Of a stretch of DNA of 35,137 nt, positions 1 through 35,137 are shown in pieces. The position numbers and the translations under genes were made by a program. The notes under the pieces were generated by a model. It saw nothing but the letters and a program-made list of their open reading frames with translations, was not told the DNA's origin and ran no database searches. Numbering within the stretch: position 1 is the stretch's first letter; every line of letters begins with the position of its first letter. The DNA is from Candidatus Berkelbacteria bacterium CG_4_10_14_0_2_um_filter_35_9_33_12 (GTDB lineage: Bacteria > Patescibacteriota > UBA1384 > GWA2-35-9), in NCBI GenBank assembly GCA_002793435.1, contig PFQF01000028.1, positions 1-35,137 on the forward strand, read 5' to 3'.

Positions 1-96
1 AAACAATATCAAAATATTAAATTCTAAATTCCAAACTGTTTATTATTTTGTATTTTGATATTAGATATTGTTTAGAGTTTAGATATTAGGATTTAG
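1..96. repeat. Heptamer-unit palindromic repeat, copy truncated by the window edge
   Basis: 1..96 is the exact reverse complement of 4919..5014; centre AAACTGTTT; contains the recF stop codon (93..95). Confidence 0.9.
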
Positions 97-1115
97 AGTT
101 TGATAATTTCTCCTTCAATCTCTTGCTCCTCTATCGAACTCAAAATCACCTGTCCGTTTTTAGTTGTGTCTAAAACCAACTTCTGATTATCTTTGTCTAA
201 TTCTGAAAAAATATCGTCTAAAAGTAAAATGACCAATTTATTCTTAATTTGGCTTTCAAGCAACTCTTTCTCAGCTAACTTTAAAAAAATTATAGCCGTT
301 TTTTGTTGCCCTCGAGAGCCAAAATTAGCCAAATTTTTACCCTTAAAATTGATCAAAAGGTCATCATGGTGTGATCCGATAGTTGTATGATTATATTTAA
401 TGTCTATTTTTCTCTGTTGACTCAAAGTTTCCTGATTAATTAATGTTAATTTGGGGACGATTTTTAGCGATCTAAAATCGCTCTTACCCAATCCAATAAT
501 TCGTTGGTAATTTTCTTGAAGAAGCTTAAAAAATTCAACTCTTTTTTGATTAATTTTTCTATTTAAGATGACTAATTGTTCGTCCCAAATATCTAATAAA
601 TTTTCATTTAAGCGATTGACTGAAATTAAAAAGAGTTGCCGGTTGCGTTGTTTAATGACTCTATTATATTCAACTAAATCTTTTAGATAAATCTTGGAAT
701 ATTGGCAAATTGCCGAGTTAATAAATTTTCTCCGATAACTAGGGCTACCTAATAAAATATTTAGATCATCTTCCCAAAAAAGAACAGTTGGTATTTCTCC
801 AATTAGTTTAGAAACTGGAACCTTATTTTTATTTATCGAAACAGTTTTTTTATCAGAAAAATTAACAAAAATCTCTTTTTTATCACCATCATTATTTTCA
901 AAACTAGATTTTAAATTAAAATATTCGTTCTCATTATTAATCAAATATTTTTCTCTTTTAACCCGAAAACTTTTAAAGATTGATGAATATCGAATTGCTT
1001 CTAATAAATTACTTTTTCCTGACCCGTTTTTACCAATTATTTGAGTCTTTTCTGAAAATTTAAAACTCTTTTTTTTAAAAGACCTGAAATTTTCTAAAGT
1101 AATTTTATTTAACAT
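93..1115 (-). CDS. recF: DNA replication/repair protein RecF
   Basis: N-terminal LENFRSF, Walker A GKNGSGKSN, signature SRGQQK, Walker B LLLDDIFSELD; downstream of dnaN. Confidence 0.93.
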   Translation of the reverse strand: MLNKITLENFRSFKKKSFKFSEKTQIIGKNGSGKSNLLEAIRYSSIFKSFRVKREKYLINNENEYFNLKSSFENNDGDKKEIFVNFSDKKTVSINKNKVPVSKLIGEIPTVLFWEDDLNILLGSPSYRRKFINSAICQYSKIYLKDLVEYNRVIKQRNRQLFLISVNRLNENLLDIWDEQLVILNRKINQKRVEFFKLLQENYQRIIGLGKSDFRSLKIVPKLTLINQETLSQQRKIDIKYNHTTIGSHHDDLLINFKGKNLANFGSRGQQKTAIIFLKLAEKELLESQIKNKLVILLLDDIFSELDKDNQKLVLDTTKNGQVILSSIEEQEIEGEIIKL

Positions 1116-1124
1116 AAATATGAG

Positions 1125-1257
1125 TTAAATCCTAAATCCTAATTTCTAAACTCTAAACAATATCTAATATCAAAATACAAAATATTAAACAGTTTGAAAT
1201 TTAGAATTTAATATTTTGAATTTGTTTAGATATTAGATATTAGGATTTAGGATTTAA
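1125..1257. repeat. Full-length ~133-bp heptamer-unit palindromic repeat
   Basis: TTAAATCCTAAATCCTAA at the left end pairs with TTAGGATTTAGGATTTAA at the right end; centre AAACAGTTT at 1187..1195. Confidence 0.9.
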
Positions 1258-1264
1258 ATTTGTA

Positions 1265-2374: not shown

Positions 2375-2479
2375 TTTTTAGTTTTGTTTAAAGATTTAGA
2401 AATTAGTTATGGTTTAGTAGTTAGTATCTATACTTACAGTCTAATAACTTATTCTCTTTTCTTTATTATTAACTTCTTT

Positions 2480-2659: not shown

Positions 2660-2666
2660 ACTTTAA

Positions 2667-4038: not shown

Positions 4039-4107
4039 TTATCCACAGATTTGTCAAAGATTGTGGAAATCAACCCGTTGCGGGTCTGTGGATAGTGCTG
4101 TGGAGAA
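4039..4107. promoter_or_regulatory. DnaA-box cluster upstream of dnaA (second oriC part or autoregulation)
   Basis: Perfect TTATCCACA 4039..4047; TGTGGAAAT 4062..4070, TGTGGATAG 4087..4095, TGTGGAGAA 4099..4107. Confidence 0.85.
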
Positions 4108-4183
4108 CTTTCGGTTAATTACCAATTTTAAATAACAAATTTTAATTTAATATCAAATGATTAAATTTCAAATTAATATAATA

Positions 4184-4212: not shown

Positions 4213-4218
4213 ATGTTT

Positions 4219-4905: not shown

Positions 4906-5044
4906 TAAATTCTAAATCCTAAATCCTAATATCTAAACTCTAAACAATATCTAATATCAAAATACAAAATAATAAACAGTTTGGAATTTAGAATTTAATA
5001 TTTTGATATTGTTTAGAAATTAGGATTTAGGATTTATGATTTTA
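4906..5044. repeat. Full-length heptamer-unit palindromic repeat
   Basis: Fills the yidD-yidC gap; very similar to 1125..1257; centre AAACAGTTT 4974..4982. Confidence 0.9.
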
Positions 5045-5049: not shown

Positions 5050-5862
5050 ATGAAATATTTTCTAAAAATTGTATTATACAATCCCCTCTATAACCTTTTA
5101 ATTGGTTTAACCTTGATAATACCCGGTCATTCGGTCGGCTGGGCAATTATTATTATTACCATATTAATTCGTTTATTTTTATTAATCCCCTCTTCGAAAT
5201 CAATCCATCAGCAAAAAAAGATTCAAGAAATTCAACCTCAACTTCAAAAACTGAAAGAGGAGTATAAAGACGATCAAAAAAAATTGACTCAAAAAACTCT
5301 AGCTCTCTATAAAAAATATAAAATCAATCCTATTGGTTCATGCTTACCGCTTTTAATTCAAGTGCCGATTTTAATTATTCTTTATCAAGTTTTTATTCGT
5401 GGATTATCAACTGCCAGTTTTAATAGTCTCTATCCATTTATTTCCCAGCCCGAGAGTCTGAACACTATTTTTTTTGGTTTAGATTTAACCAAACCTGATT
5501 TATGGGTTTTGCCGATTTTAGCCGGAGTATCGCAATTTTTCCAATCTTGGCAACTGCAACCCAAAGTAAAAAATCAATCCGTTGCTAACGATCCGAGCAC
5601 TATGATGATGAAGCAGATGATGCATGTTTTCCCGGTGATAACAGTTTTGATCAGCCGATCGTTGCCTTCTGCTCTACCAATCTATTGGGTGGTTTCTACC
5701 CTGTTTTCAATCATTCAACAGCAATCAATTTTATCTAAAAAAACCAAAGAGATTACAAGCAATGTTGTGGTTGAAATGGATGGAAATAAAGAGGTTAAAA
5801 AAGAGAGCGAAACATTCAAATCTAAAAAAGGCACTACAATAACTATCCGAAAAAAATCCTAA
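5050..5862 (+). CDS. yidC: Membrane protein insertase YidC/Oxa1 (short form)
   Basis: GWAIIIITILIR, NPIGSCLPLLIQVP, ALPIYWVVSTLFSIIQQ. Confidence 0.95.
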   Translation: MKYFLKIVLYNPLYNLLIGLTLIIPGHSVGWAIIIITILIRLFLLIPSSKSIHQQKKIQEIQPQLQKLKEEYKDDQKKLTQKTLALYKKYKINPIGSCLPLLIQVPILIILYQVFIRGLSTASFNSLYPFISQPESLNTIFFGLDLTKPDLWVLPILAGVSQFFQSWQLQPKVKNQSVANDPSTMMMKQMMHVFPVITVLISRSLPSALPIYWVVSTLFSIIQQQSILSKKTKEITSNVVVEMDGNKEVKKESETFKSKKGTTITIRKKS

Positions 5863-5901
5863 ACGCTGGACGCTAAATCCTAAACGCTATATAATATAAA
5901 T

Positions 5902-6210
5902 ATGCAAGGAGAGGAAACACAAAACCCGGTTAAGGATCAATTAAAGTCGATACCCACCTCGGAGGTGACCGAAGGGCTCCTACGAGGTGAAAAAAACGGT
6001 ATTTCTGACGGACCTTATACACTCGATGAATTAATGGGTGAAGAATTTCGCCCTAAAGAAATAGAATCTCCTGATTCTAAACCTAAATCCCTAAATTCCT
6101 CCATTCCTAAACCCTTGCCGTCAAAACACCTAGATTCTCTAAGGCAAAACACCGGTATTCCGACAAGACCGCTAACTATCGGATCAAAAAAAATTGATAT
6201 TTCCCCTTAA
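5902..6210 (+). CDS. Hypothetical protein, Pro/Ser-rich
   Basis: 102-aa ORF, TATAAT 6 nt before the ATG, terminator downstream; no recognised motif. Confidence 0.55.
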   Translation: MQGEETQNPVKDQLKSIPTSEVTEGLLRGEKNGISDGPYTLDELMGEEFRPKEIESPDSKPKSLNSSIPKPLPSKHLDSLRQNTGIPTRPLTIGSKKIDISP

Positions 6211-6287: not shown

Positions 6288-6884
6288 TTAAAACGATCGT
6301 TGCTTTTTTCTCAATCGTCTTGAAGGTTGTTGATTTTCATTTTTTCTATGATTTGTGTGTCGTTTCTTGCCGGTCGGACCGATTCTTTTTTTTCTTGACA
6401 AGATATCTTCGGCAATAAATGGTCTTAATTCTCTTAGGTCAATTAATTTAAAGCCATTACCGAAATAATCGTGATTCAAAACTTCCTTAATTGCATAAAC
6501 TTCAATCTTTTTTTGATGATCTTGATGAGCGTGATTAAGATTGTCAAAATACCCACCATCACCTGCAATAAGCACAATTGTGTCAACATCATCTCGGTTA
6601 GAAAAGTATTCAATTTCTTCCTGAAGAAGATAATCAATATCCTGATCAATGTATTGACCGCAAATAACTTTCAAATGGTACTTGCGTTTTAGTTTACGGT
6701 GAAAACAACGGATTGAATTAGAGTGGGGTAATTTGCAAAAAATAGTTTTTGCGACAACTCTTCGTTCCGTTGTCAATATATTTATCAGTTTTAAGTAATC
6801 AACCCGAATTGCCATAATCCGTGCTATATTGTAAAAATTCGGACCATCAATCAAAATAACAATCCTTTCTCTCGAGTCTTCCAC
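6288..6884 (-). CDS. NYN domain (LabA/DUF88, PIN-like) protein
   Basis: IVILIDGPNF, DIDYLL, IVLIAGDGGY; GTG start with GAGGT RBS; basic C-terminal tail. Confidence 0.8.
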   Translation of the reverse strand: MEDSRERIVILIDGPNFYNIARIMAIRVDYLKLINILTTERRVVAKTIFCKLPHSNSIRCFHRKLKRKYHLKVICGQYIDQDIDYLLQEEIEYFSNRDDVDTIVLIAGDGGYFDNLNHAHQDHQKKIEVYAIKEVLNHDYFGNGFKLIDLRELRPFIAEDILSRKKRIGPTGKKRHTNHRKNENQQPSRRLRKKQRSF

Positions 6885-6916
6885 ACAGACACCTCACTTT
6901 CAAAGAACTTAACCTA

Positions 6917-6944
6917 AGTATAGACGAATTATTGTATTAGTCAA
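6917..6944 (-). promoter_or_regulatory. Sigma70-type promoter of the NYN gene
   Basis: Minus-strand TTGACT-16bp-TATACT. Confidence 0.6.
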
Positions 6945-6952
6945 TATCTTTT

Positions 6953-6985
6953 ACCTATAAAACCTATCTAACTTATCAAGCCTAT
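6953..6985. repeat. 9-bp-unit repeat tract
   Basis: ACCTATAAA ACCTATCTA ACTTATCAA GCCTAT. Confidence 0.65.
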
Positions 6986-7001
6986 TTTTGGTGTTTTTAT
7001 C

Positions 7002-7030
7002 TTGACAGAAGTCAAGAACTATGCTAAACT
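7002..7030 (+). promoter_or_regulatory. Sigma70-type promoter of the RNase J-like gene
   Basis: TTGACA-17bp-TAAACT with extended -10 TG. Confidence 0.75.
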
Positions 7031-7090
7031 CTACTCAATCGCACTTGTACATTGTAGTCAACACTTTTGCCACGAAAGGATGTGGTTTAG

Positions 7091-8428
7091 ATGGCAAAGC
7101 AAGGGCTTTTCACAAGCCGAGACAAAACTCGACTTGGGAAAGCAGTCGCAAAACTAGAAAAAAGAAAAAATATTGATATAAAAATTATCCCGCTTGGCGG
7201 ACAGTCAGCAATTGGTGTACAGAATTGCTGGTTGATAATTTACAAAAACATTCAAATATTACTTGATTGTGGTCGAAAGATCGCCAATTTGAGAAACTAC
7301 AATATAGGAGAAATTCCTAATCATTTCAATCCTGATTATTCAAAAATTGATTTTTCAAAACCATTATATGTCATTTTATCCCACGGGCATCTTGACCATA
7401 TTTTAGGTTTAGTTAAGCTAGTTCAGCTTTGTAAAGAGTGTAATTGTCAGGTAGCTATCTATGGCGCTGAAAAGACAATCAAGGTTGCCAAAAGGGTATT
7501 GCGTGTCAACAAACTTATCGAGCTGGAAACATTTGTTTATGATTTTATAGAATTTAATACCAATAGTTATTTTCAAGTCGCTGAGATTATGATTGAATCT
7601 TTTGAAGTTTTTCACTCAATCCCCGGTTCGGTTGGCTTGGTCTTAACAATTGAAGGTAAAAAAATAGTTTATCTGACTGACTTCAAGTATTGCCGTGATT
7701 CTGATCCACAAATCCCGCAAACCTCTCGTAGGTTTCAGAAAATTGGTAAACAGAATATCGACACATTGATTGTGGATGTGACTGGTATCATTAAAAACGG
7801 GTGGGTTAGTCCCGTCTCGTTGGTCACTCATCAATTTAGAGAAATATTTGAAGACAAGAACAATGCTGAAAAAAGAATTTTCATTACCACTTTTGCATCC
7901 GATATTCAAACCATCGGAGAAATTGCTGATCTAGCAAATGTGGTTGGTGGTCGACTAGTTGAGTTTGATGGTGCCACAATGAAATTCTTTGCTGAAGACA
8001 TTGAACTAGAGAATCAAGATCAATATACAAATCCGCCAGTTATCTTTGTAACCGGTTCTCAAGGTGAAAAAGGGTCCAGTCTTGGCAAAATTGCCAAGGA
8101 TGACCATTTCATTTTTGAGTTAGATGATAATGACCTGGTAGTTTTTACTTCTACTACCCTTGGACAAAATGCTTTGCAAGTGGAGGCGATGATTGCTAGC
8201 CTAGAACAGCAAGGTGCCAGTGTGCTTATTGCCCGGCACGAGTCCGGGCATGGCGCCAGAAAAGATATAATCCAAGCAGTTCTCGATTTTCTGCCAGATG
8301 TGGTGATCCCTTGCCATGCTGGTCGAGCCAATCGGGCAAAGCTAAAAGAAATAATCGAAAAAGACGAATTTCTTTCTTCTCGAGTCACGGCTTTGTTGCT
8401 CGAAGACGGAGATTCGTATCAGATGTAG
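7091..8428 (+). CDS. RNase J-like MBL/beta-CASP hydrolase, divergent and lacking the C-terminal domain
   Basis: IIPLGG, LLDCG, SHGHLDHILG, HSIPG, TDFK, TTFAS, TGSQGE, HESGH, PCH; 445 aa. Confidence 0.85.
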   Translation: MAKQGLFTSRDKTRLGKAVAKLEKRKNIDIKIIPLGGQSAIGVQNCWLIIYKNIQILLDCGRKIANLRNYNIGEIPNHFNPDYSKIDFSKPLYVILSHGHLDHILGLVKLVQLCKECNCQVAIYGAEKTIKVAKRVLRVNKLIELETFVYDFIEFNTNSYFQVAEIMIESFEVFHSIPGSVGLVLTIEGKKIVYLTDFKYCRDSDPQIPQTSRRFQKIGKQNIDTLIVDVTGIIKNGWVSPVSLVTHQFREIFEDKNNAEKRIFITTFASDIQTIGEIADLANVVGGRLVEFDGATMKFFAEDIELENQDQYTNPPVIFVTGSQGEKGSSLGKIAKDDHFIFELDDNDLVVFTSTTLGQNALQVEAMIASLEQQGASVLIARHESGHGARKDIIQAVLDFLPDVVIPCHAGRANRAKLKEIIEKDEFLSSRVTALLLEDGDSYQM

Positions 8429-8488: not shown

Positions 8489-8521
8489 GCCTATATAACC
8501 TATAAAACTTATCTTACCTAT
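8489..8521. repeat. 9-bp-unit repeat tract
   Basis: GCCTATATA ACCTATAAA ACTTATCTT ACCTAT, directly abutting a -35 box. Confidence 0.65.
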
Positions 8522-8699: not shown

Positions 8700-9566
8700 A
8701 TGGGAAAGAACATCCCAATACGTCGGCATGAGGCTGGCGGACAGAGAGAAAAAAAGGATGATCAGCACCCACTAAGAGACGGGCAGGCTGATGTCCTTGT
8801 TACGGTAGTCGGTACGCACGGCAGTGAGCGTGCGTACGCAGAGGTAGCACAGATTATCTCCTCGAATATCGAGGAGCTGGACGAAGGCATGAAGGTTTTC
8901 GTCCAGGATACGGTTGCCGAACGAATGGTTCGCGACCGAAAAGGGCAATGGGGCCCCGGATCACAAATGGTGGTCCGGGTATCCCGGAATACGAGTGAGA
9001 AGTTCTCCCAAAAGTGGCCCCTTTGGGGATTCTTTTGGGACATGTACCACACGGACAATGTCCGAGTGGTACCCCGTGACCCCGACGATGTCGTCGAGGA
9101 GCAAAATGCCTCGTCGATCGAGAGTCTTGAGAAAGAAATACTCGATCTTGTTGAGCGCAAAGAAGCGCTCAATGTTAACGACACCTGTCTCGAGCAGAAG
9201 ACGCTCGAGGCTGTCTGTGCTCTCGAGTTGCTCTTGTCCGAGGAGGATATGGGTAAAATCGATGAGCGAGAATGGGCGGCAAAGATCGCGTTGACTTCGC
9301 TAAAGAAGTCAATCGCGATACTGGAGCGTCCTGGAGAATTCCAGTCGGGTGTCAAGGACCGATGTGGGTCCTTGGTCGAGCGCCTCCGGGCGTCGATCAA
9401 GAAGATGCCACCGCCCACTCGAAAGAATGGCAACGGCTCCTCCCCGAGTGGGGAGGAGGGTCACCTAACGGTGACCATTGCTGACATCGTCGGCAATCTG
9501 GAGCTGAACCCCGCCCAGGACAACCCCGACGATGTCGTCGAGGAGCCGGAAGCCATTCCGGCATAA
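8700..9566 (+). CDS. Hypothetical GC-rich orphan protein with a predicted helical/coiled-coil middle
   Basis: 288 aa, AAGGAG RBS, own promoter and terminator; GC far above the flanks; PDDVVEE occurs twice. Confidence 0.7.
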   Translation: MGKNIPIRRHEAGGQREKKDDQHPLRDGQADVLVTVVGTHGSERAYAEVAQIISSNIEELDEGMKVFVQDTVAERMVRDRKGQWGPGSQMVVRVSRNTSEKFSQKWPLWGFFWDMYHTDNVRVVPRDPDDVVEEQNASSIESLEKEILDLVERKEALNVNDTCLEQKTLEAVCALELLLSEEDMGKIDEREWAAKIALTSLKKSIAILERPGEFQSGVKDRCGSLVERLRASIKKMPPPTRKNGNGSSPSGEEGHLTVTIADIVGNLELNPAQDNPDDVVEEPEAIPA

Positions 9567-9835: not shown

Positions 9836-9855
9836 TTGTCAAAAAACGAGAGAGA

Positions 9856-9900
9856 GTAGGAAAAGTAGGTTTGGTAGGTAACTTAGGTCAAGTAGGTTAT
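9856..9900. repeat. Five 9-bp units upstream of the four-helix-bundle gene
   Basis: GTAGGAAAA GTAGGTTTG GTAGGTAAC TTAGGTCAA GTAGGTTAT. Confidence 0.8.
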
Positions 9901-9909
9901 AATACTAAT

Positions 9910-10466
9910 ATGTCTTTGCGGTATGAAAACTTAATAATTTACAAACAAGCTGTTATTATCTTTTCTTTGATCTAAATGATTATTTTTGTAAAACCTATCT
10001 TAAGGACTATGCTGAAAAGCGAACCGTTGAACAGATGCAACAAGCGTCAAGAAGCGGAAAACAAAACATAGTTGAAGGTATCTCAGAGATTAGTACAAGT
10101 TTACAGATAAATTTAGTGGCTGTTTCAAAAGCATCTTACCTAGAGTTTCTTGAAGATTATAAAGACTATTTGAGCAGAAACAGATTTAAAGTTTGGGACA
10201 AAAATGACCCTAGTTTATCTGTAATTAGGTTTTCTTCTACTACCTACCAGACCTACCTAACCTACAAAATCCTACCCATTTCTATCAAAAAACTTCTTAC
10301 TCAACCAGAGTCTTTTTGTAACTTAATGATAACTTTATTGAATCAAGAAACTTATATTATGTTGGATAAGTTTGTCAAAACACTTGAGAGCCAGTTTATT
10401 AAAACTGGCGGTTATGGAGAAAACCTGACCAAAAAAAGACTTGATTTTCGGAGAAAAAAGCAGTAG
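9910..10466 (+). pseudogene. Four-helix-bundle protein (TIGR02436/TIGR04258-like, 23S-IVP/Avd fold), frameshifted
   Basis: MSLRYENLIIYKQAVIIF from 9910; TCTTT duplication at 9959..9968; continues in another frame FDLNDYFCKTY..RTVEQMQQASRSGKQNIVEG..ASYLEFLEDY..FIKTGGYGENL. Confidence 0.8.
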
Positions 10467-11669: not shown

Positions 11670-11765
11670 GCAAGAATAATTCATTTCAAAACCTTGCCTA
11701 TCTAACCTATATGACCTATAATCAAGACGGGTATAAAGGAATGTAGGAATCTAGAGATAAAGAAA

Positions 11766-13934
11766 ATGGACAAGCAATACAATTTTAAAGAAAACGAGGA
11801 GAAGCTCTATAAAGAGTGGGCAAAAAAAGATGTGTGGAAGCCAAAGGGCGAGGGCAAGCCGTTCGTGATGGTGATTCCTCCACCAAATGTAACTGGCTCA
11901 CTCCATATGGGGCATGCTTTAAACACAACTTGCCAAGATATTTTAGCCCGTTATTATCGTCAAAAAGGACGACCGGTCAAGTGGGTGGTTGGGACTGATC
12001 ATGCCGGGATTGCGACGCAAACTAAGGTTGAAAAAGCGCTCCTCAAAAAAGGCATCAAAAAAAACGAGATCTCAAAAGAAGAATTTCTAAAACATATTTG
12101 GTTATGGAAAGAAGAGTATGGCAACCAAATTATTCATCAACTTCAACGATTGGGAGCAAGTTGCGATTGGTCAAAAATTTACTTTACAATGGACAATGAT
12201 TATCAAGAGGCGGTTAAAACTGCTTTCAAGCATTTCTACGATCAAGGGTTGATTTATCAAGCCGACCGTGTTGTCAACTGGTGTACTCGCTGTCAGACAT
12301 CGCTGTCGGATTTGGAGGTTGAGTATCGAAAGGAAAATACGAAGCTATATTATTTTAAATACGATAAAGATTTTCCGATTGTGATTGCTACCACTCGTCC
12401 GGAAACAAAATTGGGAGACAGCGCTGTTGCAGTTAACCCAAAAGATAAAAGATATAAAAAATATATTGGGCAAACAATCAGTGCCGATTTTGTTGGACAA
12501 AAATTAAATTTAAAAATTATTGCCGACCCGATGGTGGATATGAAGTTTGGTACTGGCGCTTTAGGTGTAACCCCAGCACATTCGTTGGCGGATGCTGAAT
12601 TGGCTGAAAAATATAGTCTCAAATCGATTCAAGTTATTGATAGATTCGGAAAAATTGTAAGCAATTTTTCCGAAGGTTTAAAGGTACGAAAATTTAAAGG
12701 TTTAAGGGCGATAGAAGCTAGAGAAAAGATTATTGAAGAGTTGGAGAAGAAAGGATTGATTGAAAAAATCGAGGATATCAAACACAACATATCTATTTGT
12801 TATCGGTGCGAGAGAGAGATTGAACCGATGACATCGAAACAATGGTTTGTTTCGATGAAACCCGAAACCCGAAATCCGAAATCCGAAACAATATCAAAAT
12901 CTAAAATTCAAAATAAATCATTACGAGAATTAGGGATGGAAGCGGTTAAGTCGGGAAAGGTTCAATTTGTGCCGAAAAAGTGGGAAAAGGTTTATCTGAA
13001 TTGGATGGAAAATGTTAAAGACTGGTGTATTTCAAGACAGCTTGTTTGGGGACACCGTATGCCCGTTTTCATTAAAAAACAAGCTACGAATTTAAAATTT
13101 AAAATTAAAAATTTAAAATTAAACGATAAAGACATCTATGTTGGGGACAATCCGCCTGAGGGGTTTGAACAAGTTGACGATGTTCTCGATACTTGGTTTT
13201 CTTCGGCGTTATGGTCGTTTGCGACTTTGGGCTACCCAAAAAAATTGGATAAAAAATATTATCCGACAACGGTACTTTCGACCGCAAGAGATATTATCCA
13301 TCTTTGGGTTTCTAGAATGATTTTTTCGTCACTAGATTTAACCGGCGAAATCCCGTTTGAAAAAGTTTATATCCACCCAACAATTTATAATCAAGAAGGC
13401 AAACGGATGTCAAAATCACTTGGAACTGGGCTAGACCCGATTGAATTAATCGATAAATATGGCGCTGACGCTGTTCGTTTTGGTTTAACGCTTTTAAATA
13501 CTGGAGTTCAAGATATCAAATTTAGTGAAGTTCACATTTTAGCGGGGAGGAAATTTGCCAATAAACTATGGAATATAGCTCGATTTATAGAGATGAATGA
13601 GATGAATCGGAAATTTTTAATTTCTAATTTTCAATTTTCATTAAATTTTCAAAACCCAATTTACAATCTATATTTTAATAAAGTCGATAAACTGGAAACA
13701 GAGACAGAGAGGGATTTGGAGCAGTTTCGGTTTGGGCAAGCTTTGGAAAGAATTTACCACTTTATTTGGCATGATTTTGCCGATAAAATGATTGAAGAAA
13801 CAAAGCAAGACGAAAGTGATGAAAAAATGGTATTTTTGCAAACGGTGTTTTCTCGCCTACTTAATTTAGTTGAACCATTTATGCCGTTTGTGGCTAGTAA
13901 GCTAAAATCCGAAACCCGAATACCGAAATTCTAA
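11766..13934 (+). CDS. valS: Valine--tRNA ligase, short form without the C-terminal coiled coil
   Basis: PPPNVTGSLHMGH, GTDHAGIATQ, DWCISRQLVWGH, DVLDTWFSS, RMSKSLG. Confidence 0.96.
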   Translation: MDKQYNFKENEEKLYKEWAKKDVWKPKGEGKPFVMVIPPPNVTGSLHMGHALNTTCQDILARYYRQKGRPVKWVVGTDHAGIATQTKVEKALLKKGIKKNEISKEEFLKHIWLWKEEYGNQIIHQLQRLGASCDWSKIYFTMDNDYQEAVKTAFKHFYDQGLIYQADRVVNWCTRCQTSLSDLEVEYRKENTKLYYFKYDKDFPIVIATTRPETKLGDSAVAVNPKDKRYKKYIGQTISADFVGQKLNLKIIADPMVDMKFGTGALGVTPAHSLADAELAEKYSLKSIQVIDRFGKIVSNFSEGLKVRKFKGLRAIEAREKIIEELEKKGLIEKIEDIKHNISICYRCEREIEPMTSKQWFVSMKPETRNPKSETISKSKIQNKSLRELGMEAVKSGKVQFVPKKWEKVYLNWMENVKDWCISRQLVWGHRMPVFIKKQATNLKFKIKNLKLNDKDIYVGDNPPEGFEQVDDVLDTWFSSALWSFATLGYPKKLDKKYYPTTVLSTARDIIHLWVSRMIFSSLDLTGEIPFEKVYIHPTIYNQEGKRMSKSLGTGLDPIELIDKYGADAVRFGLTLLNTGVQDIKFSEVHILAGRKFANKLWNIARFIEMNEMNRKFLISNFQFSLNFQNPIYNLYFNKVDKLETETERDLEQFRFGQALERIYHFIWHDFADKMIEETKQDESDEKMVFLQTVFSRLLNLVEPFMPFVASKLKSETRIPKF

Positions 13935-13972
13935 ACAAATTCAAATATTAAAATTATAAATTACAAACTGAA

Positions 13973-14039
13973 TGTCATCCCAGACTCGATCGGGGATCCA
14001 TAAATAATAGTCTAGATTCCCGCTTTTGTGGGAATGACA
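13973..14039. repeat. REP/RPE/dRS3-like GC-richer palindromic element
   Basis: TGTCATCCCAGACTCGATCGGGGATCCA...TAGATTCCCGCTTTTGTGGGAATGACA; terminal TGTCAT/ATGACA inverted repeat with two sub-hairpins. Confidence 0.75.
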
Positions 14040-14057
14040 ATCGTAACAATAATTTTT

Positions 14058-15263
14058 ATGCAAAAAATTAAAAATATTTACCATCTTTTACGGGCGGTTG
14101 TTGCCAATTTTCGCTATGGATTTCCGACCAGAAAATTATTAACAGTTGCGGTAACCGGCACGAACGGTAAAACTTCAACTGTCAATTTTATTGGTCAGAC
14201 GCTCGACCTTTTAGGTGAAAAAACGGCTTGGATTACGACGATTGATTTTAAGGTCGCTGATAAAACTTGGCAAAATAAAACCAAGATGACAGCACTTGAC
14301 CCGATGCAATTTCAAAAAATTGCCAAAGATGCGGTTAAGGCGGGTTGTAAGTATTTTATTTTTGAAGCCACCTCCCACGCTATTGATCAAAAACGGATTT
14401 GGGGAACGCATATCAATGTTGTAGTGCTAACTAATGTGACTCGGGATCATTTGGATTATCATAAAACATTTAAAAATTATCTAAAAACTAAGCTCAAAAT
14501 ATTTAAACGCAAGACTAAAGCGGTGATAAATTTAGACGATGAAAACAGCAAAAAATTTATTAAGAAATGTCGCAAAATTATTACTTATTCAATCAAAAAT
14601 CCTAAAGCGGATCTAAATTTAAAAAATTGTGAAATTAAGAACGATCAATTATTGGGCGAATTTAATCAATCCAATTTATTGGCTTCGCTTGGCGTTTTAA
14701 TCAGTTTGGGTTTTGACAAAAAAGTAATTGAGAAAAATATTTCTAAACTTAAAAATATTCGGGGAAGAATGGAATTAATTGAATGCGGGCAAAATTTCAA
14801 GGTGGTGATTGATTACGCTCATACGCCGGACGCTTTTAAAAAATTGTATAGAGCTCTATTGCCATTGAAGAAAAATAAAATCATTCATGTTTTTGGTGCC
14901 ACTGGCGCTCGGGATAAGGGTAAAAGACCAATATTAGCCAAAATCGCTTCGCAATTTGCGGACAAAATAATTTTGACTAACGAAGATCCGTATCACGAAA
15001 AACCGGCACAAATTATCAACGAAATAGCGATAGGAATTCCCAAAATATTTACTGATTTTGAAATAATCATTGATCGAAAACGAGCGATTAAAAAAGCTGT
15101 TCAAGTGGCTAAAAAAGACGATATTGTACTAATTACTGGCAAAGGGCACGAGGAAATTATGGCAGTTTCGGATGGAACGAAAAAAGGCTTTATGTTGGTG
15201 GAGTTTGATGAGAGAGAAATAGTGCGAAATACAATACAAAAAATTCTAAATACCAAATCCTAA
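14058..15263 (+). CDS. murE: UDP-MurNAc-tripeptide synthetase MurE-like (no N-terminal domain)
   Basis: VTGTNGKTS, EATSHA, TNVTRDHLDYH, GRME, DYAHTPD, GARDKGKRP, TNEDP, GKGHE; the track start at 14028 lies inside the palindrome. Confidence 0.9.
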   Translation: MQKIKNIYHLLRAVVANFRYGFPTRKLLTVAVTGTNGKTSTVNFIGQTLDLLGEKTAWITTIDFKVADKTWQNKTKMTALDPMQFQKIAKDAVKAGCKYFIFEATSHAIDQKRIWGTHINVVVLTNVTRDHLDYHKTFKNYLKTKLKIFKRKTKAVINLDDENSKKFIKKCRKIITYSIKNPKADLNLKNCEIKNDQLLGEFNQSNLLASLGVLISLGFDKKVIEKNISKLKNIRGRMELIECGQNFKVVIDYAHTPDAFKKLYRALLPLKKNKIIHVFGATGARDKGKRPILAKIASQFADKIILTNEDPYHEKPAQIINEIAIGIPKIFTDFEIIIDRKRAIKKAVQVAKKDDIVLITGKGHEEIMAVSDGTKKGFMLVEFDEREIVRNTIQKILNTKS

Positions 15264-15370
15264 ACACTAAACAAATTCAAAATATTAAATTCTAAATTCC
15301 AAACGGTTTGTTATTTGGTATTTTGGATTTAGATATTGTTTAGAGTTTAGAAATTAGAGATTAGGATTTA
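15241..15370. repeat. Full-length heptamer-unit palindromic repeat overlapping the murE 3' end
   Basis: Same layout as 1..96, centre AAACGGTTT; encodes the last MurE residues and the TAA. Confidence 0.88.
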
Positions 15371-15386
15371 TTTATCAAATTTTAAA

Positions 15387-16297: not shown

Positions 16298-16855
16298 TTG
16301 CTCGAAAAAAGAGAATCAAAATTAAAGGTTTTGATATTGGTCTTAGCGATAGGGCTATTTTTTTATTGGCACACCAGTTTGCCGAGTCGGGGAAAAGGAG
16401 AGTATCAAATTGTCTTTCCAACCAATATTTACACTGAAACCACCAACGATCAAGCCGTCAAAGATTTTTTAGCCAAAACATCGGGGCTAAAAGAGTTATT
16501 TGATAAAGCGCTCGAATATTATGGGGATGAAAAATATTTAGAAGCGGGTGTGATTTTAGAAAGGATTGTTAGTGAAAATAAAACTTTTCGGGATGGATAT
16601 TATTTTTTGGCTGAAACCTATTTAAAGCTGAGCGAAAATGACAATGATAAAAAAAACGCAATGACACGGCAAATTGACGAGACAAAATATGAAATCCAAT
16701 TTAATTATTTAGACAAAGCTGAAATTGTGCTTCGCAAAGCGTTACAAATTGATCCAATTGATAGCAAAATTTATCAACTTTTAGGTGATGTGATGGAGAA
16801 AAAAGGTAATGCGACTCAGGCTGGAGAGTATCGGAAGAAAGGAGAAAAATTCTAA
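16298..16855 (+). CDS. Membrane-anchored TPR protein
   Basis: N-terminal hydrophobic helix; TPR-like RDGYYFLAETY and KALQIDPIDSKIYQLLG. Confidence 0.7.
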   Translation: MLEKRESKLKVLILVLAIGLFFYWHTSLPSRGKGEYQIVFPTNIYTETTNDQAVKDFLAKTSGLKELFDKALEYYGDEKYLEAGVILERIVSENKTFRDGYYFLAETYLKLSENDNDKKNAMTRQIDETKYEIQFNYLDKAEIVLRKALQIDPIDSKIYQLLGDVMEKKGNATQAGEYRKKGEKF

Positions 16856-16919
16856 ATTTGATTATTAATTATGAAATCTTAATTCTTAATTATTTTGAAA
16901 TTTGTGTTATAATATCACT

Positions 16920-20470: not shown

Positions 20471-20637
20471 AATCTCGAATCTCGAATTTTGAATTTTGAT
20501 ATTGTAATTATTAGATATTCTATATTCAGTAATCTAGATTATAAATTATATAATTTGGTTATTGACATTGTAAAAACAAAACTAGTAGTGTATGATACGA
20601 GCAAGTATTTAAATAATAACTTCTATAAGGAGGAAGT

Positions 20638-21434: not shown

Positions 21435-21787
21435 TTAATTTATTCTTAATTGATAAAGCGTTGGCTTTTAACGATTACAATGTTTTTCCCAACCGACCGG
21501 AAAATGTGCCGAGTAAATTTTCGGGATCTGGCGGGGTAAACAATGCCAGCGGTAATCTAGCTAAGATCATTGAATTTATTTTCAATTTTGTAATTGCTAT
21601 TGCTGGAGCAATATTTGTCATTATGCTACTAATCGGTGGAATTACTTATTTGGTTGGCGCTGGTAATGAAGAACAGATTGGCAAGGGAAAGAAAATGATG
21701 ATTGATGCCATAATCGGAATTTTTATTGTGCTTGCTTCTTGGGCAATCGGTACCTATATTCTTAACGCTTTTGGATATAGATCTTAA
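21419..21787 (+). CDS. TrbC/VirB2-like pilin 3
   Basis: KALA motif; GGITYLVGAGNEEQIGKGKKMMIDAIIG. Confidence 0.8.
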   Translation: MDMDIINLFLIDKALAFNDYNVFPNRPENVPSKFSGSGGVNNASGNLAKIIEFIFNFVIAIAGAIFVIMLLIGGITYLVGAGNEEQIGKGKKMMIDAIIGIFIVLASWAIGTYILNAFGYRS

Positions 21788-21789
21788 AG

Positions 21790-21883
21790 AAAATCTAAAA
21801 TCCTAAATCTAAAACTGTTTAGAGAATTTGAAAATTTGAATTTATTATTTGTTTAGAATTTCGTACTTCGGATTTTGGATTTA
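21790..21883. repeat. Partial heptamer-unit repeat downstream of pilB
   Basis: 21798..21844 matches 23469..23515 at 46 of 47 positions, same orientation. Confidence 0.85.
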
Positions 21884-21889
21884 ATGTAC

Positions 21890-23468: not shown

Positions 23469-23562
23469 AAATCCTAAATTTAAAACTGTTTAGAGAATTT
23501 GAAAATTTGAATTTAGATATTGTTTCGGATTTAGAAATTCGTGCTTCGGATTTTAGGATTTA
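23469..23562. repeat. Partial heptamer-unit repeat upstream of pilB
   Basis: Direct near-copy of 21798..21883. Confidence 0.85.
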
Positions 23563-26602: not shown

Positions 26603-27595
26603 ATGAAAAAAACTAAAGTTAATCCAACATCGCTGAAAGCGGCTTTGGCGCAGATCGAAAAAGATTTTGGCGAAGGTGCCATTATGAAATATGGCGAAAT
26701 GGATAAATTAAAAGTGAGTGTTATTTCTTCTGGTTCGCTCTCAGTGGATTTGGCGCTGGGCGTTGGAGGTTTGCCAAGAGGCAGAATTGTTGAAATTTAT
26801 GGACCGGAAAGTTCCGGGAAAACAACCTTAGCTCTGACGACCGTTGCCCAAGCACAAAAAGAGGGTGGTTTGGGCGCTTTTATTGATGCTGAACACGCTC
26901 TTGATCCAGAGTATGCTAAAAATATTGGCGTTAATGTTGACGAACTATTGATATCGCAACCGGATTCAGGCGAACAAGCGTTAGAAATATGTGAAACCTT
27001 AGTTCGTTCCAATGCGTTAGATGTGATTGTCATCGATTCGGTTGCCGCCCTAGTTCCAAAAGCTGAGCTCGAGGGTGATATGGGTGATTCGCATATGGGT
27101 TTGCAAGCCAGATTAATGAGCCAGGCGTTGAGAAAATTGACAGCGGTGGTCAGCAAATCAAAAACGATTGTGATTTTTATCAATCAAATCCGAATGAAAA
27201 TTGGAGTTGTGTTTGGCAACCCGGAGACCACGACTGGGGGCATGGCGTTAAAATTCTATTCATCAATTCGAATTGAGATCCGGAAAATCGAATCGCTAAA
27301 AGTCGGCGATGAATTTATTGGTAATCGAGTTCGGGCTAAAGTGGTTAAAAATAAGGTTGCTCCGCCCTTTAAATCGGCAGAATTTGATATTATGTACGGG
27401 AAGGGCGTTTCAAAAGAAGGCGAAATTTTAGATATGGGCGTAGCCAATGAAGTAGTCATTAAAAGCGGTGCGTGGTATAATTATGGAGAAGAGAAAATTG
27501 GACAAGGCAAAGATTCAGCCCGGCAGTTTTTAACCGATCATCCGGATATAATGAATGAGATATTTGAAGTGATAAAGAAAAAGGTGAAGAAGTAA
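26603..27595 (+). CDS. recA: Recombinase RecA
   Basis: [59 protein letters not shown]; ATG at 26603 preferred. Confidence 0.99.
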
Positions 27596-27658
27596 ATTAC
27601 CAATTACAAATTTTAAATTGCGTTTCTGTAAATTATTGAGGGGGTAATTATTAACATT

Positions 27659-31171: not shown

Positions 31172-31194
31172 GGAATAATTTTGTTCTTAATAGC

Positions 31195-32195: not shown

Positions 32196-32327
32196 CTTTT
32201 TATAAAGTTCATCAAGTTTATAAAGTTTTATTAAAGTTTCCATTTTTAATGTTTAATAAATTATCAAGGATCAATTTATTCTTAAATCCAAAACCTTAAA
32301 TCATAAATATATATAGAAAGGAGTTTT

Positions 32328-32738: not shown

Positions 32739-32813
32739 TACAATTCCAAGTATCATTAAGTTGTCAATTATCAAATTCCAAACATTAAAATATTTATTAA
32801 TAAAGGAGGAATA

Positions 32814-32939
32814 ATGGAAGATCAAAAGTGTGAGTGTGGAGCAGAGCTTTGTGAGGACTGCAAATGTTCTTGCAATGAGGAAGTTTGTAAGAAGTGTTGC
32901 AAATGTGATGAAGATTGTGACTGCGGTTGTAAAAAATAA
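32814..32939 (+). CDS. Small Cys-rich metallothionein-like protein (absent from the ORF track)
   Basis: AAGGAGGA RBS; MEDQKCECGAELCEDCKCSCNEEVCKKCCKCDEDCDCGCKK, 41 aa, 13 Cys. Confidence 0.8.
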   Translation: MEDQKCECGAELCEDCKCSCNEEVCKKCCKCDEDCDCGCKK

Positions 32940-32988
32940 ATTAGTTTCAAAATTTTCTTTTTAATTTCAACGTTTGCAAAACATATTC

Positions 32989-33068
32989 AAACTGACTAAG
33001 TGTTTTTTGTGTATCATAAAACATTCTGGTATTCTGGTGAATATCAGAATGTTGTTAGTCAGTTTTTT
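32989..33068 (+). terminator. Long inverted repeat followed by a T-run (terminator or operator)
   Basis: AAACTGACTAA/TTAGTCAGTTT enclosing AACATTCTGGTATTC-TGGT-GAATATCAGAATGTT. Confidence 0.45.
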
Positions 33069-33209
33069 CAGTATTAATTTAACTGCGTAGGTTCAAACAC
33101 ATCGTGGACACTCTACCCTAATAATGATAGGGTAATAGATTAACTTAGAAAGGAGTGCTATTTCAATCAATTGGTTTTTATTAATTCTTGTTTATGCTAT
33201 ATTTTAAGT

Positions 33210-33557
33210 ATGAAAATAGTTAAAGATGAAATATTCCTTGACGAGCTCAAAACAATGTCAAAAAATATGTTTGGCAATTTAGTCAAAGCGGTTGTTGATA
33301 TTGAGAAAAAAATAATGGCGGTTAACGCAGAGCTTCACAGTGATGAAGAACAAATACTTTTAGAAAACGGTTCCACGCAAAATAATCTATGGGGAATTAA
33401 CCTATATCCGGAAAAATTTGGCACAGATAACTTTGTTGAGTTTGACTCAATGATAAACTTGCGTCCTTCGCAAAATAATCGCACTCGAGGTGTTGACGAT
33501 CCAAGAGTCCAAGATTTGATTAAGAACATAGTTGATAAATTGACAATAAATGAGTAA
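33210..33557 (+). CDS. DUF5674-like protein
   Basis: LVKAVVDIE, ELHSDEE, NLWGINLYP, FDSMINLRPSQNN; family recalled from memory; ATG at 33210 preferred. Confidence 0.75.
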   Translation: MKIVKDEIFLDELKTMSKNMFGNLVKAVVDIEKKIMAVNAELHSDEEQILLENGSTQNNLWGINLYPEKFGTDNFVEFDSMINLRPSQNNRTRGVDDPRVQDLIKNIVDKLTINE

Positions 33558-33876
33558 TATTTATCATAAAAAATTGGCTATTGGGCGTTGGCAAAAAATG
33601 AGTTTTTTTGAGCAAATGGCAAATATCGGAAGTGAAGTGGAGAGATCAGCTAATTGGAAAGAAAAAGACAAATACAATTTTGAGCTTGCAGTTGAGCGAG
33701 CGCTGGAATTAATGGATCAAACCATTAACGACAAGAAAAATAAAAAACGATTAAGAGAACTCTGCCGTTTACGAGAAGTATTTGTTGATTGGCGATTTGA
33801 AAATAATTATAAGTCTTCATTACAAAACTGGCGCAGTTATTTTTACCCGTTTATTATCGCCCACAGAGCTCAATAA
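33550..33876 (+). CDS. Hypothetical helical protein coupled to the DUF5674-like gene
   Basis: 8-nt overlap with the upstream gene; motifs RWQKMSFFEQMANIGSEVER and RLRELCRLRE. Confidence 0.75.
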   Translation: MSNIYHKKLAIGRWQKMSFFEQMANIGSEVERSANWKEKDKYNFELAVERALELMDQTINDKKNKKRLRELCRLREVFVDWRFENNYKSSLQNWRSYFYPFIIAHRAQ

Positions 33877-34071
33877 AAAAATTTCCCATATCGTCTGGAA
33901 CATGGGCTCTCTACGCCCCATTTTCAAACCAAACAACTACTCGCAAATTTGGTTTTAGCTTTAAACTATCCCGAATAGATTTTGGGATCGTGAGCTGACA
34001 TTTTCGGGTAATATTAGTTGTATATTACAGGGTGTTATTACTATATTAAGTATTACTTATTTTATCAAGTT

Positions 34072-35137
34072 TTAATGATATCGCTTCATCAGCAACGAGT
34101 TAGAGACAACGCTGACCGATGAAAACGCCATCGCTCCGGCGGCGATCATTGGATTTAAAAGTAATCCAGTTAGTGGGTAAAGAACTCCAGCGGCGATTGG
34201 AATGCCGACAATATTATAAAAAAACGCCCAAAAAAGATTTTGCTTGATTTTTTTGAGTGTGTAGGCGGACAAACGGATCGCTTCCACCACATCGCCAACA
34301 TCGTTTCTCATCAGCACAATCTCGCCGGTTTCAAGAGCAATGTCGGAACCGGATCGCATCGCAATACCAAGATCGGCTTGGGCGATCGCCGGTGCGTCGT
34401 TAACACCATCTCCGACAAATGCCACTGCCAACTTTTGGTTGGAATTTCTAATTTCTAATTTCGAATTTCTAAACAAATCTAAATTACTAAAATTCAAATC
34501 ATCCAATTTTTTTTGTTTAGGATTTAGAGTTTCGAATTTAGAGTTTGTCTGTAACTGCTTGATAATATTGGCTTTTTCGCTGGGCAAGATTTGAGCAAAG
34601 ACCAAATCAATGCCGAGTTTTTTGGCTACCGCATTACCGACCCGCTGGTTATCGCCGGTGATTATAGCAGTTTTTATACCCATACTATGTAATTTTTTAA
34701 TTGCTGGTTTTGAACTATTTTTAACAACATCAGCAACCGCAATTAAGGCGATGACTTCTCCATCGTATGCAACCATCATTACCGTCTTTCCCATTTCTTC
34801 CAGCTCAACCATTTGCTTTTCGGCATTATTGATAATTTTTTTATCCAGTAATAATTTGCGTGTTCCAACAATTAATTGCTTATTGTCGTAATAGCCAATC
34901 ACTCCACCACCGGGAACCGAATCAAACTTTTCAATTTTATGCAATTTAATTTTTTTGTCTTTAGCACTATTAACAATGGCGCTCGCCAACGGATGCTCGG
35001 AGTTTTTTTCAAGCGACGCCGCCAATTGCAACGCTTTATCTTTATTTTTGATATTTTTATTCGAAATTAGAATTATATCGGTCAATTTTGGTTCGCCAAT
35101 TGTTAGTGTGCCGGTCTTGTCAAAAACTACCATCGTA
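34072..35137 (-). CDS. copA: Cu(I)-type P1B ATPase, 5'-truncated by the window edge
   Basis: DKTGT, SEHPLA, TGDN, GDGVNDAP, TM motifs YN (WAFFYN) and MAFSS. Confidence 0.9.
   Translation of the reverse strand, partial: TMVVFDKTGTLTIGEPKLTDIILISNKNIKNKDKALQLAASLEKNSEHPLASAIVNSAKDKKIKLHKIEKFDSVPGGGVIGYYDNKQLIVGTRKLLLDKKIINNAEKQMVELEEMGKTVMMVAYDGEVIALIAVADVVKNSSKPAIKKLHSMGIKTAIITGDNQRVGNAVAKKLGIDLVFAQILPSEKANIIKQLQTNSKFETLNPKQKKLDDLNFSNLDLFRNSKLEIRNSNQKLAVAFVGDGVNDAPAIAQADLGIAMRSGSDIALETGEIVLMRNDVGDVVEAIRLSAYTLKKIKQNLFWAFFYNIVGIPIAAGVLYPLTGLLLNPMIAAGAMAFSSVSVVSNSLLMKRYH
34441..34547. repeat. Heptamer-unit palindromic repeat inserted in frame in copA
   Basis: AATTTCT AATTTCT AATTTCG AATTTCT AAACAAAT..TTTGTTT AGGATTT AGAGTTT CGAATTT AGAGTTT; encodes NSKFETLNPKQKKLDDLNFSNLDLFRNSKLEIRNS. 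Confidence 0.88.

Follow-up and report, generated by a model that had tools for sequence, protein, structure and literature searches.

Intervening sequences (IVSs) that carry an open reading frame (ORF) are known from the 23S rRNA genes of Leptospira. In Coxiella burnetii, the IVS in helix 45 is a selfish element of 428 nt with inverted-repeat stems and an S23p ORF of the PF05635 type; it is AT-richer than its host, is regarded as horizontally acquired, and is excised by RNase III (PMC4990558). Tsurumaki et al. (2024) described PF05635 ORFs in some rRNA insertions and, in 23S rRNA of the candidate phyla radiation (CPR), uncharacterised ORF-less insertions of < 200 bp at known IVS sites, which they guessed to be IVSs (PMC11270868). 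Here, we analyse a 35,137-nt contig of Candidatus Berkelbacteria bacterium CG_4_10_14_0_2_um_filter_35_9_33_12 (PFQF01000028.1, assembly GCA_002793435.1; the window in the following), which holds copies of a dispersed palindrome of ~130 bp with arms built from phased 7-bp units (heptads). We consider these palindromes to be ORF-less, internally deleted derivatives of an element of ~470 bp that encodes an IVS protein (PF05635), a reading to which we give a probability of roughly 0.6. The ORF-bearing IVS of Coxiella is the closest known system, being likewise an inverted-repeat hairpin element with a PF05635-type ORF. The present family differs from it in the phased-heptad arms, in that most copies lie outside rRNA and lack an ORF, and in being multi-copy and present across many phyla as well as archaea and phages. 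Compared with the insertions of Tsurumaki et al., a dispersed genomic family, heptad arms and a link between PF05635 and the short insertions are not mentioned in the part of that paper dealing with them (PMC11270868). In open-access papers and preprints, supplements excluded, we found no description of heptad-array arms, dispersed ORF-less derivatives or the cross-domain range, and the supplementary tables of PMC11270868 may list these insertions.

The window is contig C33 of its source genome (590 kb in 46 contigs, 94.7% complete). An nhmmer profile built from four window copies and searched across this genome gave 41 loci at E ≤ 1 and 36 at E ≤ 1e-3, and none in any of three locally shuffled genomes. 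The phased motif CTAANNNCTAANNNCTAA (at most one mismatch) is found 27 times in the window, where 0.33 occurrences are expected, a count that none of 100 shuffles reached, and the heptad copies have fold z-scores of -5.0 to -10.9 relative to shuffles on both strands. Period-7 arrays and long imperfect inverted repeats were found where an initial annotation, made from the letters of the window alone, had placed them, and all five full or near-full and all four partial copies claimed there were matched by the profile, which confirms its multi-copy family in coordinates and layout. The resemblance also exceeds that of shuffled AT-rich sequence (36 loci against none), one of the three points on which that annotation had let the family stand or fall. 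Its five “decayed tracts” fared less well: two can be retained, a weak match at 5854-5905 and a heptad-like insertion at 20452-20561 that the profile does not match, while those at 4120-4175, 16853-16900 and 27594-27620 gave no profile match at E ≤ 1, and the first of these three, beside DnaA boxes, may simply be AT-rich DNA of the origin. No Rfam family was matched at its gathering score, the only hits being plant miRNA-precursor hairpins at 22.7 bits against a gathering score of 90. An assembly artefact, or a chance likeness among AT-rich low-complexity stretches, would be in line with the AT-richness of the sequence, with the start of the window contig inside a copy and with several contigs of metagenome-assembled genomes (MAGs) that end in copies; given the shuffled controls, the occurrence of the family in a 3.4-Mb chromosome and in three single-contig genomes (G048, G068, G102), and the fact that genes with in-frame copies stay open, we hold it to be close to impossible. 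Within the source genome, C22, C27, C28 and C32, which are four of the five largest contigs (150 kb together), have no copy where ~9 were expected. The copy-rich contigs are C33, with eight, and C36, with seven; the origin region and the rRNA operon are on the copy-rich contigs.

The derivation from a longer element is suggested by contig C6 of the same genome, where a PF05635 ORF (6823-7179; 41.1 bits, cut-off 33.8) is flanked by heptad arms on the left and on the right, in an element of ~470 bp (6775-7245). The window copy at 4912-5043 aligns to this element in two blocks of 58/65 and 49/57 nt that are ~320 nt apart, and also in two blocks (67/78 and 48/60 nt) to an archaeal locus, L265. At the latter, the same heptad arms stand alongside a PF05635 protein that is 64% identical to the CPR protein, so that inverted repeats enclose a PF05635 ORF in both cases. 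The N-terminus of the archaeal protein, M-T-K-Q-I-Q-M-T-K-T-Q-N-S-K-Q-Y-D-L-E, is encoded by the hinge and the inner heptads of the repeat, and the protein matches the solved chain 2rld_A, from an entry with five chains. By their coordinates, three more archaeal PF05635 genes adjoin heptad pieces. In its two-block alignment to ORF-bearing elements in C6 and in the archaeon, the palindrome resembles the deletion derivatives known as MITEs (miniature inverted-repeat transposable elements), the parent being a PF05635 element rather than a transposase element. The initial annotation had seen neither a transposase nor a reverse transcriptase; this holds for the window, but a protein-coding candidate parent is found elsewhere in the genome, at C6 6775-7245.

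That annotation had also proposed to look for co-occurrence with four-helix-bundle genes, which we did find. Among 41 relatives from the same class, 22 have element and gene, two only the element (both single weak matches), five only the gene and 12 neither (odds ratio 26, Fisher p = 5e-5), and Y1_Tnp, included to control for richness in mobile DNA, was not associated with the element (p = 0.22). PF05635 occurred in only one of 14 control genomes. With the protein of the source genome as query, both were found in ten of 31 archaeal genomes, the element only in six, the gene only in one and neither in 14 (p = 0.002). The surroundings of PF05635 genes point in the same direction: the upstream and downstream 130-nt flanks of 35 such genes are complementary to each other (-44.4 vs. 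-32.9 kcal/mol for mismatched pairs, p = 3e-5), and 10 of the 35 lie beyond the controls' fifth percentile. Reading by eye, we found upstream tandem arrays, mostly of period 7, with their reverse complement downstream at approximately 20 of 39 tabulated genes. The unit CTACAAA/TTGTAGT goes with a Phycisphaerales protein of 51% identity, and AAGAATN, ACAATTACA, GACAGAA and GTGATTAGG are the flanking units of other PF05635 lineages. Phased CTAA/TTAG is found mainly with proteins at least ~45% identical to that of the source genome, the exception being L254 (37% identity, phased CTAA upstream).

The family has probably spread horizontally among bacteria, archaea and tailed phages. It was detected in 24 of the 41 same-class relatives and in 36 of 201 evenly drawn genomes of the phylum, the three single-contig genomes included. 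A pattern scan with one genome per species returned at least 120 stretches, and a profile check of those listed gave 151 loci in 119 of 120. The taxa listed comprise many CPR groups, Omnitrophota, Dehalococcoidia/Chloroflexi, Planctomycetes, Gamma- and Deltaproteobacteria, Nitrospirae, Elusimicrobia, WOR-3, Acidobacteria, Chlamydiae, Clostridia and Methanophagales, and among the matches listed the element is always AT-rich although the host loci have 31–62% GC. Multi-copy genomes occur far from the source genome, with matches on both strands counted: a Methanophagales MAG (45), a Phycisphaerales MAG (24), the 3.4-Mb deltaproteobacterial chromosome (23) and a Chloroflexia MAG (19). Of the relatives of the Methanophagales MAG, which is from a methanotrophic archaeon, 16 of 31 have the family. 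One archaeal carrier contig encodes a TrmB-domain protein and an IF-2 protein with a GTP_EFTU_D4 domain, which we take to be aIF5B-like. In IMG/VR, nine viral contigs hold one to four copies each, between portal, head and cement-protein genes, and three kinds of phage contig have copies flanking head-module genes; GenBank phages and PLSDB plasmids gave no match. For a small repeat family, it would be an unusually wide range for one 130-bp element to be common to CPR, Planctomycetes, Chloroflexi, Omnitrophota, methanotrophic archaea and phages.

The anatomy of the element and its pairing statistics were derived by script from the hmmalign columns of 162 full copies aligned to the profile. The heptad has four near-invariant letters (C ~95%, T 85–95%, A 99%, A 99%) and three free positions. 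Along an arm, outer CTAAANN units are followed by the hinge CTAAACAA and then by inner CAAAANN units; the hinge (CTAAACAA/TTGTTTAG) is conserved at 94–100% and the centre, AAAC.GTTT, at 85–90%. According to an end profile of 153 copies, an arm of ~60 nt has a terminal NAAAYYC and three to four CTAAAYY units, and in these copies no conserved flank or duplication was seen outside the element. Read from the sequence, the phased TAA of one arm and TAG of the other are stop codons in all three frames of both strands, and because of these stops no ORF fits into the ORF-less copies. Two copies on two contigs of one Desulfobacteria MAG (L021:733-942 and L114:1421-1630), which are 95% identical over 210 bp, have extra outer inverted arms of ~35 nt that begin and end with TATAGT; some lineages therefore have an extended unit.

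The initial annotation had pictured an element spread or homogenised through an RNA or single-stranded DNA hairpin, with many of the mismatches being G-U pairs on one strand. Neither idea is supported by the 162 copies. There is no difference in folding between the two strands (-34.8 vs. -34.9 kcal/mol, Wilcoxon p = 0.86), mirrored free positions pair at 0.785 against 0.792 when shuffled, giving no covariation between the arms, and the arms of one copy have no complementarity beyond that of chimeric arms (-34.8 vs. -36.8 kcal/mol). With no pairing excess, no advantage over chimeric arms and no strand asymmetry, the family is therefore defined by its phased CTAA/TTAG and not by a copy-specific hairpin. 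Nor does the element look like an intrinsic terminator, as the arms are AT-rich and there is neither a GC-rich stem nor a T-run in the end profile.

Insertion polymorphism, which the initial annotation had suggested looking for among relatives, was found in a congener whose proteins are ~88–90% identical to those of the source genome and whose genome is only ~85% complete. The congener lacks the 23S copies at C36 4868 and 5642, having short GC hairpins in their place and rRNA flanks that are 97–98% identical, and relative to it the copy in the 16S 3' spacer is a clean insertion of 158 bp. No target duplication accompanies the latter, in line with the earlier impression of there being none. The profile has 10 matches in the congener vs. 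41 in the source genome. At 12 of 13 shared sites, the congener's copy is 41–70% identical, with flanks of 77–90% identity, and has 0–6 CTAA/TTAG against 5–10; the 13th, inside the 23S gene, is 89% identical (11 vs. 9). Paralogous copies of the source genome are 92–97% identical to each other, and the near-identical Desulfobacteria pair is also on different contigs. From the decay of orthologs and the near-identity of paralogs, it follows that individual copies decay and that the intact copies of the source genome are young or have been overwritten by others. Together with the empty congener sites, this supports the proposal that the element is dispersed, is non-autonomous and is tolerated at the ends of genes. 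Insertion into pre-existing hairpins was considered and rejected, since the flanks are not complementary overall (mean -7.0 vs. -6.0 kcal/mol, p = 0.19). Outliers in flank complementarity amount to 10 of 153 copies, all of which except L136 are in rRNA genes or spacers with GC-rich outer stems.

Copies in the source genome fill their intergenic gaps almost exactly, leaving 7–27 nt to the neighbouring ORFs. Placement in other phyla was assessed for 139 full copies among the matches listed in the pattern scan. Only one of these is inside a long ORF, and stop/element/start is the commonest arrangement (62/139). The upstream stop codon is at a median distance of 3 nt and falls within the element in 39% of the copies; we rely on distances on the stop side, because those on the start side are biased by start-codon calling. 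Without the element, 58 of the 118 spacers that contain one (49%) measure ≤ 40 nt, a size class that holds 2.5% of the non-coding bases. No specific gene recurs beside the element in 120 cross-phylum loci among the matches listed, the largest cluster being ABC ATPases at 11 loci.

These placements bear on the possibility that the palindrome is an RNA hairpin selected by the host, serving as an RNase III site, a stabiliser of mRNA 3' ends or a translation insulator, with the PF05635 gene as an occasional passenger. Copies are flush with stop codons and sit mostly between co-directional genes (96 tandem, 14 convergent and 8 divergent pairs), they lie beside head-module genes in phage contigs of three kinds, the architecture with its three to four outer heptads per arm is constant, and the source genome has an RNase III gene. 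Moreover, RNase III cuts Correia elements, according to the passage on them in PMC10969869. A hairpin under such selection is at odds with the lack of covariation and of any pairing excess, with the decay at 12 of the 13 orthologous sites, and with the use of both orientations relative to the genes (nine same, eight opposite, counted by hand). It also agrees poorly with the lack of a terminator-type T-run or GC stem and with the multi-copy state of the family in archaea, and we regard this explanation as improbable.

Several observations nonetheless weigh against the derivation from a PF05635 element. The Fisher p-values overstate the case because related genomes are not independent, and the table of repeat units was made without a shuffled control, its reverse-complement units being read by eye from the flanks. 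A piece of the heptad family that the profile detects lies within 200 nt of only six of 37 PF05635 genes, and five of these six had been chosen for apparent adjacency. The source genome has one clear PF05635 gene for its ~36 copies, and no PF05635 or protein match was found in two element-bearing relatives and six element-bearing archaeal genomes, MAGs being incomplete. The four-helix bundle has, to our knowledge, no known nuclease or recombinase activity, and the protein may not be the engine but cargo or a regulator. Lastly, in one related pair of Planctomycetes contigs the flanks are less well conserved than the orthologous element itself, a hint of host-level selection and thus a further point for a host hairpin.

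If the palindromes do descend from the PF05635 element, one arm would encode, by its hinge and inner heptads, the N-terminus of the protein, insertion would leave no target duplication, and copies would persist where a protruding AT-rich hairpin with stops in all frames does little harm. Such sites would be those after stop codons and at operon junctions, the tips of rRNA helices, where copies would appear as IVSs, and occasionally surface loops of proteins, where they would be in frame. The protein Avd binds nucleic acid, and because of this property, of the resemblance of PF05635 to Avd and of the variation of the repeat unit with the protein lineage, the four-helix-bundle protein may recognise the phased units of its own arms, as DNA or RNA. 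Arm recognition would then be needed for the spread or maintenance of full and ORF-less copies alike. The lineage-dependent flanking unit predicts sequence-specific binding, so that the role of the PF05635 “IVS protein” becomes testable. The resemblance is to Avd of phage BPP-1, as noted in a passage of PMC10053308. The present system differs from the diversity-generating retroelement of Avd in that no reverse transcriptase was found in the source genome, in the lack of template and variable repeats, and in that the gene stands alone between repeat arrays. A wider reading, which we offer as tentative and think rather unlikely as it stands, is that PF05635 genes are the signature of an unrecognised class of mobile elements, whose ends consist of short tandem units in inverted arrays that the protein reads in a lineage-specific manner, which travel among bacteria, archaea and phages with no classical transposase, and which are the source of rRNA IVSs.

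Another way to account for the palindromes is an ordinary MITE mobilised by a conventional transposase (IS200/RAYT-type, IS5 or IS630), acting in trans or arriving with phages, the PF05635 link being a by-product of genomes rich in mobile DNA. The family is small, non-coding, polymorphic and of many copies (the 36 loci at E ≤ 1e-3), and its arms act as terminal inverted repeats, all of which a MITE would have; a target-site duplication is missing. Enzymes of the HUH type leave no target duplication and the IS5 target is YTAR, so that the missing duplication and the CTAA/TTAG motif, respectively, would suit such enzymes. Three Y1_Tnp-like ORFs are also present in the source genome. These do not track the element, each is flanked by its own, different palindromes, and the Y1 protein of the source genome has no match in the archaeon, a Chloroflexia genome or an Omnitrophota genome, all three of them element-bearing; a RAYT/Y1 transposase was rejected as the partner on these grounds. 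RVT_1 was not found in the source genome at its 94.7% completeness, and no neighbouring gene recurs in the cross-phylum loci among the matches listed, the search for a cognate transposase being confined to these leads, with other transposase families not searched genome-wide. Among 89 ORFs of the source genome without a tblastn match in the congener, the 30 annotated ones, mostly of at least 195 aa, include no transposase or recombinase and have functions in restriction-modification, pilus, envelope and housekeeping; the list is noisy because the congener is only ~85% complete. We therefore judge an ordinary MITE to be unlikely. The ORFs unmatched in the congener include AlwI-like and DpnI-like restriction enzymes and a type III res/mod pair (C6:15914-17722, C27:2602-3462, C13).

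The RAYT-like Y1_Tnp ORFs (206–236 aa) are at C46:1768-2465 and C46:20960-21634 (L205, L206) and at C30:2289-2621. Both of those on C46 are bracketed by perfect palindromes of their own (38 nt and 27 nt) that are unrelated to the heptads, like minimal IS200-type units or REPtrons. Repetitive extragenic palindromes (REPs) are GC-rich hairpins of 20–40 bp with a GTAG/CGTC tag, as characterised in the portion of PMC3733652 that defines them. The likeness to REP/REPIN-RAYT systems lies in extragenic palindromes, often after genes, that are kept with a single-copy protein gene which is itself repeat-flanked. There, however, the partner is a Y1 nuclease, while here phased CTAA heptads go with a four-helix bundle, and the RAYT-like genes are flanked by other palindromes and are not associated with the element.

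Among other small repeats, Correia elements of Neisseria and the ERIC sequences of enterobacteria are non-autonomous intergenic inverted repeats of 100–200 bp that are co-transcribed and cut by RNase, in the outline given by PMC10969869. These have target duplications, are transposase-derived and are confined to a genus or family; in the heptad family neither a duplication nor a transposase was found, the proposed parent encodes a four-helix bundle, and the range is cross-domain. The same outline gives Rickettsia palindromic elements (RPEs) as ~150-bp elements inserted in frame in protein genes (PMC10969869). In-frame insertions are shared, adding here 37 aa in a CopA-like and ~19 aa in a ValRS-like protein, but they are exceptional (the one of 139 full copies in a long ORF), and the likeness is drawn from descriptions. 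A further comparison is with integrons. Their attC sites have terminal RYYYAAC and GTTRRRY boxes; the ends found here are NAAAYYC/GRRTTTN and copies lie between housekeeping genes and in rRNA, which does not suggest attC, no integrase search having been made. We know of no palindromic layout or PF05635 link for the STRR (short tandemly repeated repetitive) sequences of cyanobacteria. These resemble the present family in being tandem heptamers, found in the RNase P RNA gene (Vioque 1997, by its title as cited in PMC2858038), and differ, by description, in their units.

Copies in rRNA genes connect the family to IVSs. The 23S gene on C36 is 3484 nt long, compared with 2925 positions in the Rfam LSU model, and contains insertions, one of them after model position 583. 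Four copies of the family extend its helix tips (Table 1), with hairpins of the IVS type at known 23S sites, presumably including helices 25 and 45 in E. coli numbering. The 16S gene contains a related insertion of 151 nt, and one family copy is located directly 3' of this gene. Copies in rRNA genes and rRNA spacers have GC-rich outer stems in common, which other copies lack. Family copies were also found in a Paceibacterota 23S gene and in a 16S gene labelled Thermodesulfovibrionales. By analogy with Coxiella, the rRNA hairpin is probably removed by RNase III (PMC4990558). Six RNA runs each contain 8–11% of sampled words, and in a comparison of three of them and one DNA run the RNA contigs match only conserved rRNA, at 90–95% likeness; lack of RNA cover over the rRNA insertions is uninformative because these contigs come from other organisms. 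With the same family in rRNA helix tips and in intergenic DNA, and with empty sites in a sister species, the origin of rRNA IVSs becomes testable. In practical terms, MAG assemblies break at copies, proteins gain residues and genes gain stop codons from them, and rRNA genes become longer; annotation pipelines should recognise them.

Three further observations concern rRNA genes. The 151-nt insertion, in 16S helix 6 (C26 ~8735-8890), is heptad-like without a profile match, and the same is true of an additional AT-rich hairpin insertion of 109 nt in the 23S gene (C36:4405-4513). A group I intron (Rfam, 60.7 bits) is found at L039:1074-1328, beside Yanofskybacteria 23S fragments that also carry a heptad copy.

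Table 1. Positions of heptad-family copies and related features in the window and, where a contig is named, in the 23S gene of the source genome.
Feature	Position	Strand	Evidence and remarks
Copy cut by contig start, 3' of recF	1-102	-	nhmmer E 6e-27; 96% identical to the 4906-5044 copy
Full ORF-less copy filling the recF/dnaN spacer	1123-1256	+	nhmmer E 5e-35; 8-9 nt from both ORFs
Full ORF-less copy between yidD-like ORF and yidC	4912-5043	+	nhmmer E 3.5e-36; two-block alignment to C6 element
Weak remnant at yidC 3' end	5854-5905	+	nhmmer E 0.17 only; one phased CTAA match, 5873-5890
Second element type: inverted 9-mer arrays, GTAGGT... 9855-9897 and ACCTAC... 10242-10276	9855-10276	+	TRF, sequence
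Half copy, in frame in ValRS-like gene, CTAA to CGAA	12857-12916	+	nhmmer E 0.005; ~19 extra residues vs. 1gax_A
Half copy, 3' end of ValRS-like gene	13903-13974	-	nhmmer E 1.3e-5; ORF terminates within copy at 13934
Full copy, Mur ligase/FemAB spacer	15239-15371	-	nhmmer E 2.6e-36; supplies Mur ligase stop, ORF end 15263
110-bp heptad-like insertion after PNPase	20452-20561	.	Absent in congener (BLAST blocks abut); no HMM match
Partial copy between pilin and T2SSE ATPase genes	21785-21884	+	nhmmer E 6.5e-6; congener sequence there unrelated
Partial copy between T2SSE ATPase gene and ftsK	23469-23553	-	nhmmer E 4.4e-9
Copy in frame in CopA-like P-type ATPase gene (gene on -)	34444-34550	+	nhmmer E 8e-6; 37 extra residues
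Four family copies as 23S helix-tip extensions	C36 4201-4338, 4868-4992, 5642-5785, 6662-6784

The window copies lie among housekeeping genes, namely recF, dnaN, dnaA, rnpA, yidC, RNase J, tsaD, the ValRS-like synthetase, Mur ligase, FemAB, PNPase, pilins, FtsK, RecA, PPDK and the CopA-like ATPase. The counterpart of the 1123-1256 copy in the congener is decayed, being 108 bp long and 64% identical with one CTAA/TTAG vs. 10 in the window copy. In the CopA-like gene, residues 2–196 and 234–352 of the query align to the contiguous stretches 329–517 and 518–636 of 3j08_A, and in this in-frame copy, as in the ValRS-like one, CTAA is changed to CGAA. The congener's ortholog of the ValRS-like gene has an insert at the matching site too, but with different heptads. 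In the congener's Mur ligase/FemAB spacer, one heptad arm is kept and the other is replaced by a different repeat. This is a copy of another palindromic repeat, TGAATGTCATCC...GGGAATGACA, which is also seen at 13973-14040 of the window and at ~15500-15600 of contig C7 of the congener. By a crude count, the 8-mer TGTCATCC occurs 18 times in the source genome and 36 times in the congener.

Intergenic 9-mer arrays (ACCTAnnAA or its complement GTAGGT) lie at 6953-6985, 8490-8521, 9855-9897, 10242-10276 and 11697-11720, and appear to be a second family of elements of this type. Between the third and fourth of these, a weak PF05635-like frame (C33:9993-10148) scores 19.7 bits, below the cut-off, and a Pfam search of the ORF at 10035-10466 gave no match. 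The arrays at 8490-8521 and 9855-9897 enclose a GC-rich (~51%) ORF of 288 aa without a Pfam match (8700-9566).

Lastly, the window has one perfect and two one-mismatch DnaA boxes between dnaA and rpmH (4039-4107) and four one-mismatch boxes between dnaN and dnaA (2540-2659). The DnaA-box count of the whole window, 16 vs. 10 in shuffles, is not significant, and the GC skew changes sign near 7 kb. The dnaN-dnaA-rpmH region is probably the replication origin.

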